This document shows, in pieces, positions 18,070 to 52,077 of a DNA stretch of 64,000 bases. This stretch comes from Eledone cirrhosa (lineage: Eukaryota), in the NCBI GenBank assembly GCA_964016885.1, contig OZ024747.1, positions 88,412,001 to 88,476,000 of the forward strand, read 5' to 3'. How positions within the stretch are numbered: position 1 is the stretch's first letter; every line of letters begins with the position of its first letter. A program made the position numbers and the translations under genes. Under the pieces are notes generated by a model, which saw only the letters and a program-made list of their open reading frames with translations, was not told where the DNA came from and ran no database searches.

Positions 18070-18524
18070 AGTAAGTGACATAGTCACTACTTTACAACAA
18101 TAGCGTAAGGTCTTCAAAATGCTTTTAATTAAGCATACAGTGTATTGCAAAATACACTATATATTCATTCATATATATATCGCTATTTCAGAGCACCAAT
18201 TCTAATTTTCAATTTTTGCTGGACCGGCAACCGCTCTGTATAATCAGTTCCTGATTATTACTGGAATTCTATAAGAATCCAACATTCATAATTTTCAACA
18301 AACAAGGGGAGTGCTAAGCTCTGAGGAATACCAACACATGAAACAGAGATCTGTCAGCTTATCTCCCTTTGTTTGTTGAAAAAAGAAGTAAGTGACATAG
18401 TCACTACTTTAAAACAATAGCGTAAGGTCTTCGAAATGCTTTTAATTAAGCATACAGTGTATGTATTGCAAAATACACTATATATACATTCATATATATA
18501 TATATCGCTATTTCAGAGCACCAA

Positions 18525-38624: not shown

Positions 38625-38747
38625 TATATATATATATATATATATATACGCACACACTATATATATATATATACACACACACTATATATATATATATACA
38701 CACACACTATATATTATATATATATATATATACTTATATATATATAA

Positions 38748-41700
38748 ATCCCATTAAAAACCACATTAAAAATTCAATTAAAAATCTATTTTGAAAAACC
38801 CATTAAAACCCCCATTATAAGCTCATAAAACACTCCATTAAAACCCCAACCAAACCCCCCATTAAAACACAATTAAAACATCATTAAGAATGCCAATAAA
38901 AGCGCCATTAAAAACCACATTGGAAACCCATAAAAACCCAATCAAAACAAAATTTAAGGCTCAATTAAAAGCCCCCATTAAAACTCCATTAAAACCCCCA
39001 TTAAAATTGACCCCCCCCCATCGAAAACACATTTAAACCGAAATAAAAACTCAATTAAAACGCAATTAAAAACTCAATTAAAACACCATTAAAAACACAA
39101 TTAAAAGCCCATTTAAACCAATTAAAATTGCATTAACACACCACTAAGGTTCCATTGGAAAACCATTAAAAATTTCATTAAAAACTACACTGAAAACCCA
39201 TTAAACCCCCATTAAAAACACACCCAAAACTTTATAAAAAAAACCAATAAAAAAACCCCATTAAAATACCATTAAAACGCCATAAAACACCATTAAAACT
39301 CAATTAAAAACTCCATTTGAATCTCCATTATAAACTCAATTAAAACTCCATTAAAACTCAATTAAAAACTCCATTAAAAACACACACACATGAAGTTACA
39401 TGCTGGCTTGCACACTTATAGCGATTGCTATTTCCTTTTAATTTCATTAAAACTAGGATGTTTTAGAAAGATAAAAACAAAACTGAATAATGAAGAGACT
39501 AGGGAGGGGTAAAGAAAGGCAGATCAGGCTGTAGAGGACAGTAGGGGGAGAAGAGGGAAGGGACTAGGGAGGGGTAAAGAAAGGCAGATCTGGCTGTAGA
39601 GGACAGTAGGGGGAGAAGAGGGAGAAATAAACTAAATTATAAACTAAGTTATAAACTAAATTATAAACTAAATTAAAAACTCAATAAAATAAAATAAAAT
39701 AAAATAAAATAAAATAAAAAAAATAAAAAAAACTAAAAAATAAAAAAAACTAAAAAAGACTAAAAAAAATAAAATAAAATAAAACAAAATAAAATAAAAT
39801 AAAATAAAATAAAAAAAAATAAAAAAAAATAAAAAAAAATAAAAAAAAATAAAAAAAAATAAAAAAAAAATAAAAAAAAATAAAAAAAAATAAAAAAAAA
39901 TAAAAAAAAATAAAAAAAAATAAAAAAAAATAAAATAAATAAAATATAAAAAATAAATAAAATAAAATAAAATAAAAACTCAATTAAAAACTCAGTAAAA
40001 ACTCAATTAAAAACTCAATCGAAGCACCATTAAAACACCATTAAAAACGCCATTATAAACCCACTAAACCCATTAAAAATCAATTAAAAATTCCATTACA
40101 CATCCCATTAGAAATTTCATTAAAAACTCAATTAAAAGTTCCATTGAAAACACATTCAAAACCCATTAATCCCATATTAAAAGTTCATAAAACTCTATTA
40201 AAAACCCAATAACAAACCCATTAAAACGCCATTAAAACGCCACAAAACAAATAAAATGCCATAAAAAAGCAATTAAAACATCACAAAAAGCCCAATTAAA
40301 AAACCATTAATAATTTCATTAAAAATTCCATAAAAATCCATTAAAAACTCCACTAAAAGCCCATTAAAAAGTTCATTAAAAGCCATATTATAAATTTCAA
40401 AAAAACAATTGAAAACCCCATTATTTATGAGCTTTTTTATGAGTTTTTAATAGTGTTTTAATTCCGTTTCTAATTGCGTTTAAAATTGGGTTTTAATGGA
40501 TTTTTAATGGTGTTTTAATGGAACTTTAATAGGGTTTTCAATGCTGTTTAATGGGGTTTTTTATGGAGTTTTTAATTGGGTTTTCAATGGTGTTGTTTAT
40601 GAGTTTTTAATGGTGTTTTTAAATGGGTTTTTAATGGAATTTTTGATTGCCTTTTTAATGAAATTTTTAATAGATTCAATGAGGTTTTAATGGAGTTTTT
40701 AATGGTATTTTTAATGGCGTTTTAATTGTGTTTTTATGGTGTTTAAATGAGTTTTAATGATTTTTAATTGGGTTTTTAATGGAGTATTTTTAATGAGCTT
40801 TTAATGGATTTTTCAATTGGATACTTAATGGGTTTTAATGGAATTTATAATAAGGGTTCTAATTGACTTTAAATGTGATTTTTAATAGAGTTTTTAATGA
40901 AATTTCTAATGGTGTTTTTAATTGCGTTTCCCCCGTGAGGGTTTTAATGGCATTTTAAATGACGTTTTAATGAGTTTTTATGATGTTTTAATGGCGTTGT
41001 AATTGTTTTTTATTGGGTTTTTTAATTTTGTATGAGCTTTTAATGGGGGTTTTCAATGTTGTTTTTAATGGAGTGTTTAATGGAATTTTAATGGGCGTTT
41101 AATAAAAAAAATTGCTTTTTAATTTAATTTTTAATGCGTTTTTGATGGTGTTTAAGTGCGTTCATGACGATCTTTTTTTAATGGATTTTTAATGGGGTTT
41201 TAATTGAATTTTTAATGGTGTTTTCAATGTAATTTTTAATGACAGTTTAATGGTGTTTTAATGACGTTTTAATTGTGTTTTTATGGTGTTTTAGTGACGT
41301 TTAAATAGGATTTTTAATTGTTTTTTTAATTGAGTATTTTTATGAGTTTTGACTGGTGTTTTAATGGGTTTTTCAATATTGCATTTAATGGAATTTTTAA
41401 TATGGTTTCAAATGGAATTTTTAATGTGTTTTTAATTGGGTTTCTAGTGACGTTTTTAATGGTACTTTAAATGACGTTTTAATGACTTTTATGGCGTTTT
41501 ATTGGGTTTTTTAATTGGGTTTTTAATGTAGTTTTTTTTTAAGATCTTTAATGGGGATTTTATGGGTTTTCAATGCGGTTTTTAATGGCATTTTAATGGA
41601 GTTTTTGTTGTGATTGTTAATGGTATTAGTGACATTTTAATGTGTTTTAATGGGTTTGTAATGGTGTTTTAAGCGAGTTTCTGATTTAGTTTAAATTTAA

Positions 41701-43711
41701 ATATTTAATGGTCCTTCTAATGGGCTTTAATGGATGTGTAATGTGTTTAATGGAATTTTAATGGGGGTAGTAGGTTTTCAATGGGTTTTAATGGAGTTTT
41801 AATTGCCTTTTTTATTGGGCTCCTGTGCTCTTTTTTTTTAGAGTTTTTAATGGTATTTTTAATGGTTTTTCATTGAACTTTTAATTGCGTTTTTAATCTA
41901 GTTTAAAAACTGAGTTTTAATGGGTTTTTCAATTAGATTTTTAATGGATTTATAATGGTATTTTCTTACGGATCCTTTAATTTTTTTATAATGGATTTTC
42001 AATGCCGTTTTAATGGTGTTTTTTAATGGTATCCGTAATGACGCTTCGATAAGTTTCAATGTTATTTTAATGTGGTTTGGATTGATTTTTAATGGAGTTT
42101 TTTTTATGAACTTTTAATGGGGTTTTCGATCAGGTTTTTAACGGAATTTTTAATGTTTTTCAATTAGGTTTTTTATGGAGTTTTTATGGGCTTTTTAATG
42201 AGTTTTTAATGGTGCGCTAATTGAGTTTTCAATTACCTTTTTAATTGAGTATGAAATCGAGTGTTTAATAAGTTTTTAATGAATTTTTAATGGAATTTTA
42301 ATGGAGTTTTCCAATGGACTTTTAATTGTGTTTTAATGGGGTTTTAAAATTGGTTTTTAGTTGCATTTTTGAGGGGCTTTTAATGGGGGGTTAATGGGGG
42401 TTTAATGGGGGATTTAATTGAGTTTTTAATGGAGTTTAATATAATTTATAATGGATGTTTTAATGGAGTTTTTAATGAAGTTTTAATGTAGTTTTTAATG
42501 AGGTTTTAATGACAATTTTAATGGCGTTCTTAATGGTGTTTTAATGGTATTTTATGGCATTTTAATGACTGTTGTAATGGTTTTTAATGGAGTGTTAATT
42601 GGTTATTAATTGTATTTTAATGGGGTTTATGAGCTTTTTAATTGACTTTTTAGTGGTGTTTTAATGGAGTTTTTAATGGAGTTTTTAATGGGTCTTTTAA
42701 TGGAATTTGCAATGTAGTTTTTAATGGTGTTTTCAATTGCGTTTTAATGACGTTTTAATGGTGTTTTTTATGGCGTTTTAATAGGATTTTTAATTGGTTT
42801 TTTAAAGGACTATTATTATGGTTTTTTTTATGTAATTTTATAATGGGATTTTCAGTAGGGTTTTTAATTGGATTTTTAATGGAGTTTATAATATGGTTTT
42901 TAATTGGATTTTTAAAGAATTTATAATTGCGGTTTTAATCTAGTGTTTGATGGAGTATTTAATTGGTTTTTAATGGTAATTTTAATGGAGTTTTTAATGT
43001 GTTTTTTAATGGGGGGGGGGTTAAATGGAGTTTCTAATTGAGTTATCAATGGAGTTTTTAATGACATTTTTAATGACGTTTTAATAGCGTTTTATGACGT
43101 TTTAATGATGTTTTACTGGGTTTTTTTATTGGGTTTTGGGAGTTTTTATGAGCTTCTAATTAGGTTTTAAATGGGGTTTTCAATGAGGTTTTTAGTGGAA
43201 TTTTTAATGGGTTTTTAATGTATTTTTAATGGGATTTTAATGGTTTTTATGGCATTTTTAATGGTATTTTAAATGCTGTTTTAATGTTTCTTTTATGGCC
43301 TTTTAATTGGGTTTTTGATTGAGTTTTTAATGGCTTTTTTAACGAGAATGGGGAAGTTTAATGGGTTTCCAGTGTGTTTTAAATGAAGTTTTTGATAATA
43401 TTTTTAATGGAATTTTAATGGGGGTTATGGGATTTTAATGGGTTCCGGTGGTATTTTGCGGGTTTTAATTGGGTGTTAAATGGTTTTAATGTTGTTTTAC
43501 TTGCGCTTTCGATTACGTTTACAATTAAGTTTTTACTGTTTTTAATTGGATTTTTAATGGATTTTAATGTGGTTTTCAATGACATTTTAATGGTGTTTTA
43601 ATATAGTTTTTAATGGGTTTCCGATGTAGCTTTTAATGGTGGTTTAGTGTGCTTTTTATTGGGTTTTTAATGAGTTTTTATGAGCTTTTCAATGGAGTTT
43701 TTAATGGTGTT
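38748..43711. repeat. Fold-back degenerate ~9-11-bp A-tract satellite (CCATTAAAA / TTTTAATGG)
   Basis: A C/A-rich arm runs to ~40422, then switches abruptly to the reverse-complement G/T-rich arm to 43711. The left arm is interrupted by 39381-39975. Confidence 0.9.
39497..39623. repeat. 65-bp purine-rich tandem dimer
   Basis: GACTAGGGAGGGGTAAAGAAAGGCAGATC.GGCTGTAGAGGACAGTAGGGGGAGAAGAGGGA at 39497 and 39562. Confidence 0.92.
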
Positions 43712-43856
43712 TATATATATATATATACATACATATATATGTATATATATATATATGTGTATATATATATATTTACACATATATATGTGTATATATATAT
43801 ATGTGTATATATATATTTACACATATATATGTGTATTAAATATATATATATATTAA

Positions 43857-48420: not shown

Positions 48421-49271
48421 GCAACCGGGAAAGATAAATTTACATTAATTTAGAAGCCTGAAAATATTTGAGCAGCCCATACAAGTATACTACCACTCAA
48501 TTTATTTAACGACAACTACTATACAACACACATAATCTCATATGTACTACAATACACGAACCAAACCAATGAAGAAGCTTCCAGGTGGTTGTTTGATATA
48601 CTATAGATAGCAGACAAATTCCTCTTAAATTATACCACAACGTTTTTTAGAATTAATAAATAAGATGTTGGATAAAATCTGTCTGAAAACGTGTCATGGT
48701 GAGAATGGTCTTGGATATATTCCTCGTTGAAGAAAACTTGCCTTAACGAGAACAACAACAACAATCAAATACAATATATCAGGTATGTTAAACATCAATA
48801 CACCAAATATTTCTCTCCAGCATAACATTTTAGAATAACCTCTGTTTCATTTCTGGTATTGACAGAAATCTTACCATATAAGCCGATAACATGAACTGAT
48901 AGCAGATGATGCCACAGGATTAATGGAGCAACTAACAGCAAAACAATATTTTAGAAGATTAATATTTACTTTACATTTTTCCTTAGTCTTTCCTTTAATT
49001 TCTGTTATATTACAAACTTTCTTTAGGACAAGCTTAAGGTAAGATTATCACATTTCATAAATTTATTATCTGATGTATTTCAGTAGCACCGTGTTTGTGT
49101 ACAATTCCCTTTTCACCTTTTTGCTTTAATATTTTCTATCCGTAATAAATTATGTATGTATGTGTTTGTATATAGGTACTTAAGTATAAATGCTTTTACA
49201 TGTGGCATTGTATTAATGTGTATATTTCTAAAATTAGTTTTTTCAAAGAATCCCAGTTCTATATATATATA

Positions 49272-49440
49272 TTTGGAAACTCTCGTTCGTAGAATCGAGA
49301 CGTCTCTGTCTGAGGACCTTGCGATTTCAGAGTCAGGTTCGATCATTACATCGATCGTGCCTCAAACTGGTCCCCAGAGAAACGATTGTAATATATCTAA
49401 TAAATTTTATTCGTCGCAACACTGATTCTCCGTTTCTTAT
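49272..49440 (+). mobile_element. Penelope-pLTR-like hammerhead element, copy 2
   Basis: CTGAGGA 49310-49316, GAAAC-gatt-GTA 49379-49390, then AATAAA; homologous to 26020-26180. Confidence 0.75.
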
Positions 49441-49537
49441 GTCACACACACACACACACACATACACACACACACATATATATATATATGTAAAAGGTAA
49501 ACAATATATATATGTATGTAAAAGGTAAACAATATAT

Positions 49538-50143
49538 TGTCAGGTCACCAGTTGGTGCTACTGGTAACATGTATTCCAGTACAACCTGTCCCATGGTCGG
49601 ATCGTTGGCGACTAAACTGGCAACCCCACCAACGTTTCTTGGTGAGGAGGGTGACTTTGGACATCTTGCAGGACTAAAAACAAAACCTGTCAAAGGGCAA
49701 AGGAGCTCTTAAGAGTCAATGGCCATCCAAAATCACCGGGAGAGATGACCTCTTAGCCTTTGTCAAGGCAGAATTCTAGAAGGAAAACTCTGATATAACA
49801 CCTGCAACCCTGATGGTATCCAATGATGTTGACTTGTTCTTCTTTTTGGTAAATATCATCTTGGTTAAGAGAGTGGGACTGGCTTTGTGCAGTGCCTTTG
49901 CTCACTATAAAAGCTTCATGGCACAGGCATTGCTTTATATCTAGAGATCTCACTGCACTTGTCGTCACATGGTACCAAGGGCCCAGCACTATGTGTCAAT
50001 AATTGTCACAAGTGTAGTGTTTGTACCAGAGTTTTCAAGTCGCTGGCTGGACTAAAATGTCACACTCGTTCAGCGCATCGGTAAGGGTTCTCCTACATGC
50101 ATATAAAGTAGTGGCCGTACTCGAAAACGAGTTGGCAGCCACC
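49538..50143 (+). mobile_element. Bipartite (internally deleted) RTE element with a 28-bp TSD
   Basis: TSD ATATGTATGTAAAAGGTAAACAATATAT at 49510-49537 and 50144-50171. RTE 5'UTR-type motif TAGAAGGAAAACTCTGAT. Terminal C2H2 finger CHKCSVCTRVFKSLAGLKCHTRSAHR* (50004-50084). Short 3' tail. Confidence 0.85.
49539..49620 (+). ncRNA. Degenerate HDV-like ribozyme candidate at the RTE 5' end
   Basis: P2 CCAGT/ACTGG, P3 ACA/TGT, GG then P4 TCG/CGA, and J4/2 CTAA occur in the correct order. P1 is imperfect and L3 is short. Confidence 0.45.
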
Positions 50144-50179
50144 ATATGTATGTAAAAGGTAAACAATATATATATATAT

Positions 50180-50514
50180 AAACATACAGCATATTATCAA
50201 ATATACTATACATACATCGGTATTTCAGAGCACTAATTCCTAATTTTTGCTGGACCGGCAACAACTCTGCTTAATCAGCTCCTGAACATTACTGGAATTC
50301 TATAAGGATCCAACTTCTATAAGTCTCGGCAGAAGCGAAAGGATATGCAATCTTGATAGCCGCTAACGAGCGAGAAACAGTTGTCGGCTGTTTTCCTTTG
50401 TTTTCGCCGAGACTAAGTAAGTGACATAGTCACCACTTTAAAACTCATAGCGAATGGTCTTCAAAATGTTTTAAAATAAACATAAAGTATATTATCAAAT
50501 ATACTATACATACA

Positions 50515-50520
<6 letters not shown>
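50180..50520 (+). mobile_element. Retrozyme-like element copy 2 (~298-bp monomer, different permutation)
   Basis: Shares TATTTCAGAGCAC, TTTTTGCTGGACCGGCAAC, ACTGGAATTCTATAAG and AGTAAGTGACATAGTCAC with 18070-18530. Terminal direct repeat AAACATA..ATATTATCAAATATACTATACATACAT at 50180 and 50478. Decayed hammerhead CTAACGA..GAAAC agtt GTC (50363-50385). Confidence 0.78.
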
Positions 50521-50560
<40 letters not shown>

Positions 50561-50563
<3 letters not shown>

Positions 50564-50701
50564 AATTGCTTCGAAAGGACTAGAACTGTTTCATTCGGGA
50601 GAAATCATCAGAAATCCATTTCTATATTAAATATTTATACTCTGCTATGTATTGAGTAGCTCATTTACTGTGGTTACCCCCGATTGAACCCGGGATAAAC
50701 T
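50561..50701 (-). mobile_element. Short TA-inserted element with hammerhead-like core, copy 2
   Basis: Minus strand GGATTT-CTGATGA-tTTC tccc GAAt-GAAAC-agtt-CTA-GTCC; homolog of 23886-24020. Confidence 0.65.
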
Positions 50702-51227: not shown

Positions 51228-51418
51228 GGGCGGTGGATTGGCAGTATCGGTAGAGGGTCGGACGCCATTCTTTGCAGCAAAGAGTTAAGGCCCTTTATGG
51301 TCTGAGTTCAAATCCCGCCGAGGTTAACTTTGCCTTTCATCCTTACGGGGTCGATAAAATAAAGTACTAGTAATACACTGGAATAATTGCTGGCCTTGTG
51401 CCAAAAGTAGAAACAATT
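51228..51418 (+). mobile_element. tRNA-derived SINE with TSD
   Basis: Full length; ATTATATTTAG on both sides. Confidence 0.9.
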
Positions 51419-52077
51419 ATATTTAGCAGTGTGCTACTGGTTACATGTAACCAGTAACACACGTGACTACTACTAGAGGTAAGTAAAGTAACAACCCTTG
51501 ACCATGCCCATAAACAAACCAGTGGTTGTTTGTATACCAAATCGTGCACCCTGTACCAGCCCATTGCTTTTTATTAGTTTGAAGTGAACAATCATTGAGG
51601 TAACATAACTTTGTAAAACTTTAATTTACAATTCAATGTTTCTCCGATTAATAGAATCAATCAATCTAATGTTAGATGCTAGACAGATCATTGTAAAATG
51701 ATTTAACTTACATTTCAATACTTATTTAATGACATTTTGTCTATTGCTGGTTGAATAGTCATTCAAGTTTTAAAATTTCACATTACAATTACTCCAACAC
51801 AATGGAATCACAAGACGATCTCCTTACACAATGGCTGATAAGTTACAAGCAATAATATTCGATGGACGTTAAACCGGATGTTTCAATTTCTGCTGGTGTA
51901 AACAATGCCGTACAGAGTGGAGATTTCCAGAAGGACGATAACATGAAAAGCTTAAAATATCATTTTTCCTTAATATTCAGAAAACGCCGGACCAAATAAG
52001 CCATCCCAATTTTCAAAACTAACTCACTATTTACTTTGTTCCAATTCTTACTATTTAATAACGGCGTCAACAAATCG

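Follow-up and report, generated by a model that had tools for sequence, protein, structure and literature searches.

A predicted flavivirus-type exonuclease-blocking knot at the 5' end of an RTE-type element within a stack of four mobile elements

Retroelements of the RTE clade often carry ribozymes at their 5' ends, and the likely role of these ribozymes is the processing of the 5' end from upstream transcripts (PMC7761336; this and all other literature is cited from the accessible parts of each source). Bipartite RTE elements keep 5' parts for a reason given as unknown (PMC5786205). Penelope-like elements are recognized by inverted and partial tandem copies of their pseudo-LTRs, a tail, and a use of (TA)n targets (PMC8557442), and a preprint derives the retrozymes of animals from Penelope-like elements (bioRxiv 10.64898/2026.07.22.740005).

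The closest viral structure is the exonuclease-blocking xrRNA, for which the defining features of subclass 1a are set out in PMC7527734, PMC7749634, PMC13161572, and PMC8374639. These are a three-way junction with a 5-bp P1, a variable P2, and a P3 of 4-8 bp, one conserved C separating P2 from P3, a U.A-U base triple, a PK1 of two pairs with G-C as the second, a PK2 of 3-8 bp joining L3 to the downstream strand, C-G as the sole pair type at the junction, and resistance to Xrn1 that needs no protein and relies on a ring around the 5' end. The second pseudoknot, PK2, is essential for resistance in a viral xrRNA (PMC13161572). A 2021 review described xrRNAs as characterised only in viruses and asked whether eukaryotic genomes encode them (PMC8374639). 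In our literature search, which left most subscription journals outside its range, none of the papers listed describes a retroelement with an xrRNA.

The stretch of DNA that was analysed, hereafter the window, is 64,000 nt long and lies in a 3.0-Gb animal assembly (G000). Within it, the 1.4 kb at 49272..50701 consist of four separate mobile-element insertions in one microsatellite patch. These elements, A, B, C, and D, follow one another in the order claimed by an earlier note on this DNA, and the TA and CA spacers that it described are confirmed in the sequence, together with GA tracts. Each represents a genome-wide family, with 2185, 5391, 2942, and 1103 first-look candidates, respectively. 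Their nearest copies are 93%, 98%, 88%, and 91% identical, so the stack was likely built up over time.

A (TA)n tract (49260..49272) borders the 5' side of A, a fragment of 5'-truncated Penelope-type pseudo-LTR appearance (49273..49442, + strand). A (CA)n and then (TA)n tract (49443..49489) leads to a 14-nt remnant of the 3' end of a fifth TA-flanked family (49490..49503, - strand; matched by eye), which is seen again at 49518-49531 and 50152-50165. Longer copies of this fifth family occur at two other loci (L008 and L012), and the remnant sits inside the target site of B. Element B itself (49538..50143, + strand) lies between the left (49510..49537) and right (50144..50171) copies of a 28-bp target-site duplication, both on the + strand and identical to each other. 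Element C (50180..50515, + strand) is a partial tandem of Penelope/retrozyme type with a unit of ~298 nt, in which 50180-50217 is repeated at 50478-50515. Beyond a (TA)n and then (GA)n tract (50516..50561), D is composed of an inverted 5' piece with a damaged type I hammerhead (50562..50611, - strand; core starting at 50611) and a direct 3' end plus tail (50612..50701, + strand), after which a TA/TG tract begins.

The earlier note had also placed a homolog of each element elsewhere in the window beside microsatellite, and all four can be found there: A at 26.0 kb (86% over 169 nt), B at 4.3-4.4 kb (73% over 115 nt), C at 18.1 kb (74% over 341 nt), and D at 23.9 kb (80% over 200 nt). The point needs narrowing for B, as its 4.2-kb match is just the 3' half of a sister subfamily and comes without the 5' domain. 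Separately, long degenerate 11-12-bp satellite arrays in opposite orientations occupy 38746-43714 of the window.

B is the youngest of the four elements, with copies elsewhere that are 97-98% identical and a perfect 28-bp flanking duplication; most of these copies have an (ATGT)n/(AT)n 3' run. In B, a 5' UTR part is joined to the end of an ORF and a 3' UTR. The remnant of the ORF C-terminus (49950..50081, + strand) includes a C2H2 zinc-finger-like motif and a stop codon, and it matches Pfam zf-C2H2_4 at E 0.0035, which is below the curated cut-off. B also matches the 5' end of a locus with an AP-endonuclease ORF (L248) at 80% over 94 nt; we take this locus to be an RTE from motifs and position, not from a tree. 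By its sequence, B qualifies as a bipartite RTE element, with an RTE 5' UTR part and 3' end, a microsatellite tail, and a target duplication. Tail-dependent priming has been proposed (PMC6007223), and the TA/ATG flanks of B fit it. An autonomous partner was not found in G000: the knot described below stood at the start of none of 30 RTE-type loci, and the longest open frame among 150 matches was 104 aa. One contig joins 49531 to 50165, with a short side of just 24 letters that is too weak for an empty-site claim.

The first 58 bases of B (49538..49595, + strand), at its exact 5' end, match the subclass 1a flavivirus xrRNA in the three-way junction, the junction C, the triple nucleotides, and both pseudoknots. 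On the + strand, P1 is formed by 49541-45/49584-88, P2 by 49546-49/49554-57, and P3 by 49559-64/49576-81, with the unpaired junction C at 49558. PK1 joins 49538-39/49582-83 and PK2 joins 49568-71/49592-95; the bases expected of a putative triple (49540, 49560, and 49580) are in place. For 49537-49600, structure prediction gives the three-way junction as the fold of lowest energy, and this energy is not unusual (z 0.23).

A search of Rfam places Flavivirus_SLIV (RF01415) at the first bases of B with 24.9 bits and E 0.14, against a cut-off of 54.5, and this is the sole non-microsatellite structural match over the knot stretch. The same family matched only 1 of 13 related loci, at E 4.6. Among 30 copies of B, 28 could be parsed, and in these P1 and PK1 pair in 28, P2 in 27, and P3 in 26, with a 4-bp PK2 in 27. 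Sister subfamilies keep the P2 hairpin with a different sequence. A short inverted fragment of the P3 region also occurs at 51418-51469 of the window, just after a SINE.

Covariation was assessed in 12 rows chosen by eye, one for each of 12 animal repeat families, four from G000 and eight from metagenomes; chance-like rows, viral rows, and the loci L278/L349 and L343, not shown to be retroelements, were excluded. In this set, 91% of cells pair (27-43% in slid controls) and 11 of the 22 pairs show changes in both partners, a count reached in 0/500 shuffles, in a test that is inflated by kinship among the rows. The search pattern placed no constraint on P2 or on the middle of P3, and PK2 lay outside it. 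All five PK2 pairs covary across the 12 rows, and Watson-Crick cells number 43/60 at its register compared with 9-13/60 at seven shifted registers.

Conservation of the anchor bases in metagenome rows is circular because the search pattern imposed them. This applies to the junction C between P2 and P3, found in 12/12 rows, which was imposed for the metagenome rows and not for B. P1 is present in all 12 rows, as is a P3 of at least 4 bp. The second pair of PK1 is G-C in 12/12 families, the first forms in 6/12, and PK2 reaches at least 3 bp in 10/12. One family (L296/312/313/330) keeps the junction without PK2, and L358 has one mismatch in PK2. We consider it very probable that the 5' end of B folds as an xrRNA-like knot.

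The position of the knot is precise, with 29 of the 30 top B copies starting at 49538, the first knot base. In an unrelated repeat family, which has 47 copies and mixed flanks, the shared sequence begins at the conserved G or at the preceding base. A junction-anchor pattern found at least 120 metagenome loci, many of them GC-rich, chance-like, and without helices; among the matches listed, 47 are from one short animal-like repeat family and several others from further AT-rich families. In G000, two knot patterns matched at 14 and 291 places, and their reversed controls at none. At L248, the knot is directly upstream of the AP-endonuclease ORF, whose nearest clusters are eukaryotic; L318 has a decayed counterpart (by eye).

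Three further observations concern the distribution of the knot. Many copies (L405-L424, L268, L317, L318, and L325) have an extra 5-nt TCAGG at the 5' end, and these units perhaps arise from reverse-transcriptase slippage at the knot. Tandem arrays of knot sequence are found at L425-L434 (G000:C2:221059405-221061226) and L397-L400, with units of 59 nt and ~103 nt. Complete knots with C-G closing P1 are present in eukaryote-like metagenome contigs (L278/L349 and L343) with no clear retroelement downstream.

A similar pattern applied to a viral collection yielded 49 loci, of which 16 lie near the 3' end of 10.4-11.1-kb contigs and are taken as flavivirus by size and position. When a model was built from the 12 non-viral rows, 13 of these 16 contigs scored at least 21 bits, as did 0/31 of the other anchor-matched loci in the viral collection. 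Two small contigs, L442 and L445, possess the full fold and also score highly with this model. Applied to 40 metagenome loci, the model gives 23-26 bits to three that lie outside the repeat families. The geometry of the knot rows, with a linker of 2-4 nt and P3+L3 of ~17-23 nt, matches that of viral xrRNA. As a side observation, small contigs of 1.2-4.8 kb (L442:149-206; L445:149-226 and 496-553; L267:1499-1565 and 1835-1892; L476) hold either one or two subclass 1a-like knots, which are complete and share the U-A junction pair of B; the contigs are possibly non-flavivirus RNA viruses.

What might such a knot do at the start of a retroelement? Likeness to the viral structure suggests that it probably acts as an exonuclease block. 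B would be co-transcribed inside a host RNA, Xrn1 or Xrn2 would digest the RNA upstream of B and halt a few bases short of the knot, and the unit RNA left behind would be copied by an autonomous RTE, whose reverse transcriptase would open the knot from its 3' side. Halt sites have been reported ~5 nt before P1 or 2 nt before PK1, and the equivalent position here is near 49536. We put at about even the chance that B begins with a predicted flavivirus-type knot and that this knot, not a ribozyme, sets its 5' end. The broader proposal, that a branch of animal RTEs, together with the elements that depend on them, has a genuine subclass 1a xrRNA at the 5' end with which host Xrn1/Xrn2 carve element RNA from read-through, seems to us evenly balanced too.

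That the knot may replace a ribozyme is suggested by the starts of other RTE-type families in this genome, where the folds are twister-like or HDV-like. One such family in G000 starts with a 5'-truncated twister-P1-like fold (L365:934-986, +; L381:2743-2797, -; L372; L384), with Rfam scores of 28-39.8 bits (best E 1e-5) that fall below the cut-off, and it often lies right after a TA tract. Two more RTE-type families have HDV-like starts, identified by eye and with no Rfam match. The first includes L364, L367, L368, L370, L385, L388, and L389; the second (L362, L371, L375, L376, and L382) also begins CTGATGA, with no GAAA after the first hairpin.

One should keep in mind that a real fold may serve another purpose, such as binding of the RTE protein, 5' joining at insertion, or translation, with the likeness to xrRNA being a convergence on a compact junction. 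We regard this as unlikely. It gains from the family (L296) that is without PK2, the pseudoknot found essential in viral xrRNA (PMC13161572), from junction pairs that are weaker than the viral ones, and from the retention of 5' parts by bipartite RTE elements (PMC5786205). However, the match extends to unpaired positions of specific identity (junction C, triple bases, and PK1), to the register of PK2, and to the length of the linker, and the fold stands at the exact 5' end.

It is also quite unlikely that the knot blocks exonucleases only to protect, after decapping, an RNA made from an internal promoter of the element, and has no part in creating the 5' end. An internal promoter would also be expected to give a precise 5' end, and the start of B resembles what we take to be a TCA-type initiator. 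The sister RTE-type families speak against this reading, as they start with ribozyme-like folds of the kind proposed to free the element from upstream transcripts (PMC7761336).

The earlier note had read an HDV-like fold in B. A relaxed HDV descriptor does parse the 5' end of B, with a score of 12; 23 of 100 shuffles score at least 12, and 42/100 match the descriptor at all. A stricter descriptor matched 0/30 B copies, although it also missed all 10 of its intended positive controls. Since the strict version missed 10/10 controls and the relaxed version matched 42/100 shuffles, neither is a strong test. With the parse at chance level and no Rfam ribozyme match to B, we did not retain the HDV-like assignment. 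HDV-like and twister ribozymes are common at the 5' ends of RTEs (PMC5786205, PMC7761336), yet a self-cleaving ribozyme in the 5' domain of B, whether HDV-like or of a class so far undescribed, is very unlikely; besides these results, sister subfamilies retain the junction hairpin but have other sequence in place of the CCAGTT arm that could pair downstream.

The three other elements, A, C, and D, look like Penelope-type pseudo-LTR fragments. We place them as Penelope-like because inverted and partial tandem copies, a tail, and microsatellite targets match the hallmarks in PMC8557442. Inverted copies adjoin A, C, and D in 10, 13, and 25 of 29 other loci, and B in 0/29; C is a partial tandem copy. 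A has an optional tail, present in 9/29 copies, that aligns with the tail of D (5/2000 shuffles score as high), which makes it doubtful that A and D are unrelated, as the earlier note had supposed of all four elements. The three would have been mobilised by Penelope-like endonuclease/reverse-transcriptase proteins favouring (TA)n. The genome has 10,596 GIY-YIG candidates, and domains of this type that carry a cysteine motif upstream occur in abundance. In the 30 GIY-YIG loci checked, no such ORF could be tied to A, C, or D, and one of these loci held a copy of C that is probably a separate insertion; within 1.5 kb upstream of A, no ORF was found.

The earlier note proposed that (TA)n tracts are a shared landing pad for a community of ribozyme-bearing elements. 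As background, 120 random 10-kb stretches of the genome (1.2 Mb in total) were sampled, in which (TA) tracts of at least 8 bp cover 6.5% of bases, at 3.5 tracts per kb. A (TA) tract lies within 15 nt of 1.8% of control positions and any TA/TG/CA run within 15 nt of 4.1%. By comparison, 3' ends at (TA) number 8/10 for D, 7/9 for C (whose 3' end is itself TA-like), and 5/12 for B in this sample; 12/12 B ends are at some TA/TG/CA run, partly via its own tail. A had just two matches in the random sample, and 26/29 of its top-scoring copies, a non-random set, end at (TA). In the commonest SINE-like family, 13/149 have (TA) at one end or the other.

The enrichment thus holds up in the test that the note itself named, whereas its restriction to ribozyme-bearing families does not. 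Of 57 de novo families with four or more copies, 31 reach 75% or more in microsatellite flanking, and the canonical hammerhead motif is present in 8 of those 31; more families may carry ribozymes, because only this motif was counted. Flanked copies make up 102/115 in hammerhead families and 265/557 in the others. For the A, C, and D families, the enrichment at (TA)n is the already-reported target bias of Penelope-like elements (PMC8557442).

Clustering of these families is real and common, and the island as first described is ordinary. At least four such families fall within 1450 bp in 8/120 stretches, against a mean of 0.7 under uniform placement; shuffling within stretches gives a mean of 2.0 stretches and a maximum of 7 in 500.

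The same note took all four elements to bear ribozyme motifs and suggested that read-through transcripts could be cut into unit RNAs. Neither statement is supported by the elements themselves. Rfam gives no ribozyme family in 15 matches at E<=10 over the 49272..50701 region, and none among the best 150 of 201 matches on the window, which are mostly microsatellite-driven miRNA matches. The type I hammerhead of A (49302-49398, + strand; core 49310-49316, GAAA 49379-49382, predicted site after 49390) keeps a canonical core, but a 4-nt duplication and a substitution have left it with a stem I of 3 bp. In the family, 24/29 parsed copies have the canonical core, 17/29 with a stem I of at least 6 bp as well, and the first pair of the long branched stem II is C-A in 27/29.

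In the hammerhead-shaped region of C (50357-50391, + strand), CTAACGA replaces CTGANGA (50363-50369), and a canonical core is found in 0/27 parsed copies of the subfamily. The subfamily reached thousands of copies with this non-canonical core, keeping a long enclosing stem and a palindromic stem III. The core is intact in a relative at 18.3 kb: at 18311-18360 of the window, in the 18.1-kb relative of C, lies an intact type I hammerhead with a 6-bp stem I and a palindromic stem III. The hammerhead of D is in the inverted piece, on the - strand, with the tail on the + strand, and has mismatches in stems I and III; its family shows the core in 28/95 loose matches, chance matches included, 13 of them with the stems also.

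Cutting of read-through RNA into unit RNAs is unsupported here because the + strand of 49272..50701 has no intact canonical ribozyme. Even with clustering above uniform placement and intact hammerheads in other copies of families A and D, it is highly improbable that the island works as one unit, with four ribozymes cutting its read-through RNA into unit RNAs, as each of its three hammerheads is damaged, non-canonical, or antisense, the nearest copies point to elements of different ages, and such stacks are common in the genome.

By itself, the island matters little beyond showing the known Penelope bias for (TA)n. The knot, if it works as proposed, would add a third way of defining a 5' end to the HDV-like and twister ribozymes, and it would explain exact 5' ends without a ribozyme in one group of LINEs. 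It would also be a chromosomally encoded class of xrRNA with tens of thousands of copies, which implies that these genomes yield many stable RNAs whose ends are set by exonucleases. As a candidate donor or recipient of the flavivirus fold, it would have a bearing on the origin of that fold. As a 60-base candidate with natural compensatory variants, it is open to the standard Xrn1 assay.

A, C, and D share with Penelope pseudo-LTRs and the non-LTR retrozymes of animals a type I hammerhead or hammerhead-like motif near the 3' end, 5' truncation, and a tail extension, together with inverted and partial tandem copies and (TA)n targets (PMC8557442; 10.64898/2026.07.22.740005). They differ in that tails here are ~70-80 nt whereas theirs are 30-40 nt, in the long branched stem II of A with its C-A first pair, and in the spread of the C subfamily without a canonical core.

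Like the bipartite non-autonomous RTE elements RTE-N and Bov-A, B has a 5' UTR part joined to a 3' end, a microsatellite tail, and a target duplication (PMC5786205), and a sister subfamily of B has a close match, by eye, to the 23-bp RTE 5' UTR motif of the same paper, the accessible text of which describes no such RNA structure at the 5' ends of those elements. With the 5'-terminal ribozymes of the RTE clade (HDV-like, PMC5786205; twister, PMC7761336, PMC8501958), B has in common a structured RNA at an exact 5' end and the proposed freeing of element RNA from an upstream host transcript; unlike them, its knot is without a catalytic motif and is proposed to be a passive exonuclease block.

The features shared with the subclass 1a xrRNA of mosquito-borne flaviviruses (RF01415) are a 5-bp P1, a variable P2, and a 5-6-bp P3; one unpaired C between P2 and P3; U, A, and U at the triple positions; a 2-bp PK1 with G-C as its second pair; and a PK2 of 4-5 bp after a 3-nt linker. 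Viral xrRNAs, however, lie in the 3' UTR of viral genomes, whereas the knot of B is encoded on an animal chromosome, where it stands at the start of a retroelement. B has U-A at two junction pairs, where the accessible text of PMC13161572 gives only C-G for mosquito-borne flaviviruses; U-A closing P1 is seen in none of the correctly parsed viral rows (14 of 16). Because of these two pairs and a score below the RF01415 cut-off, we file B as xrRNA-like, not as a member of the family.
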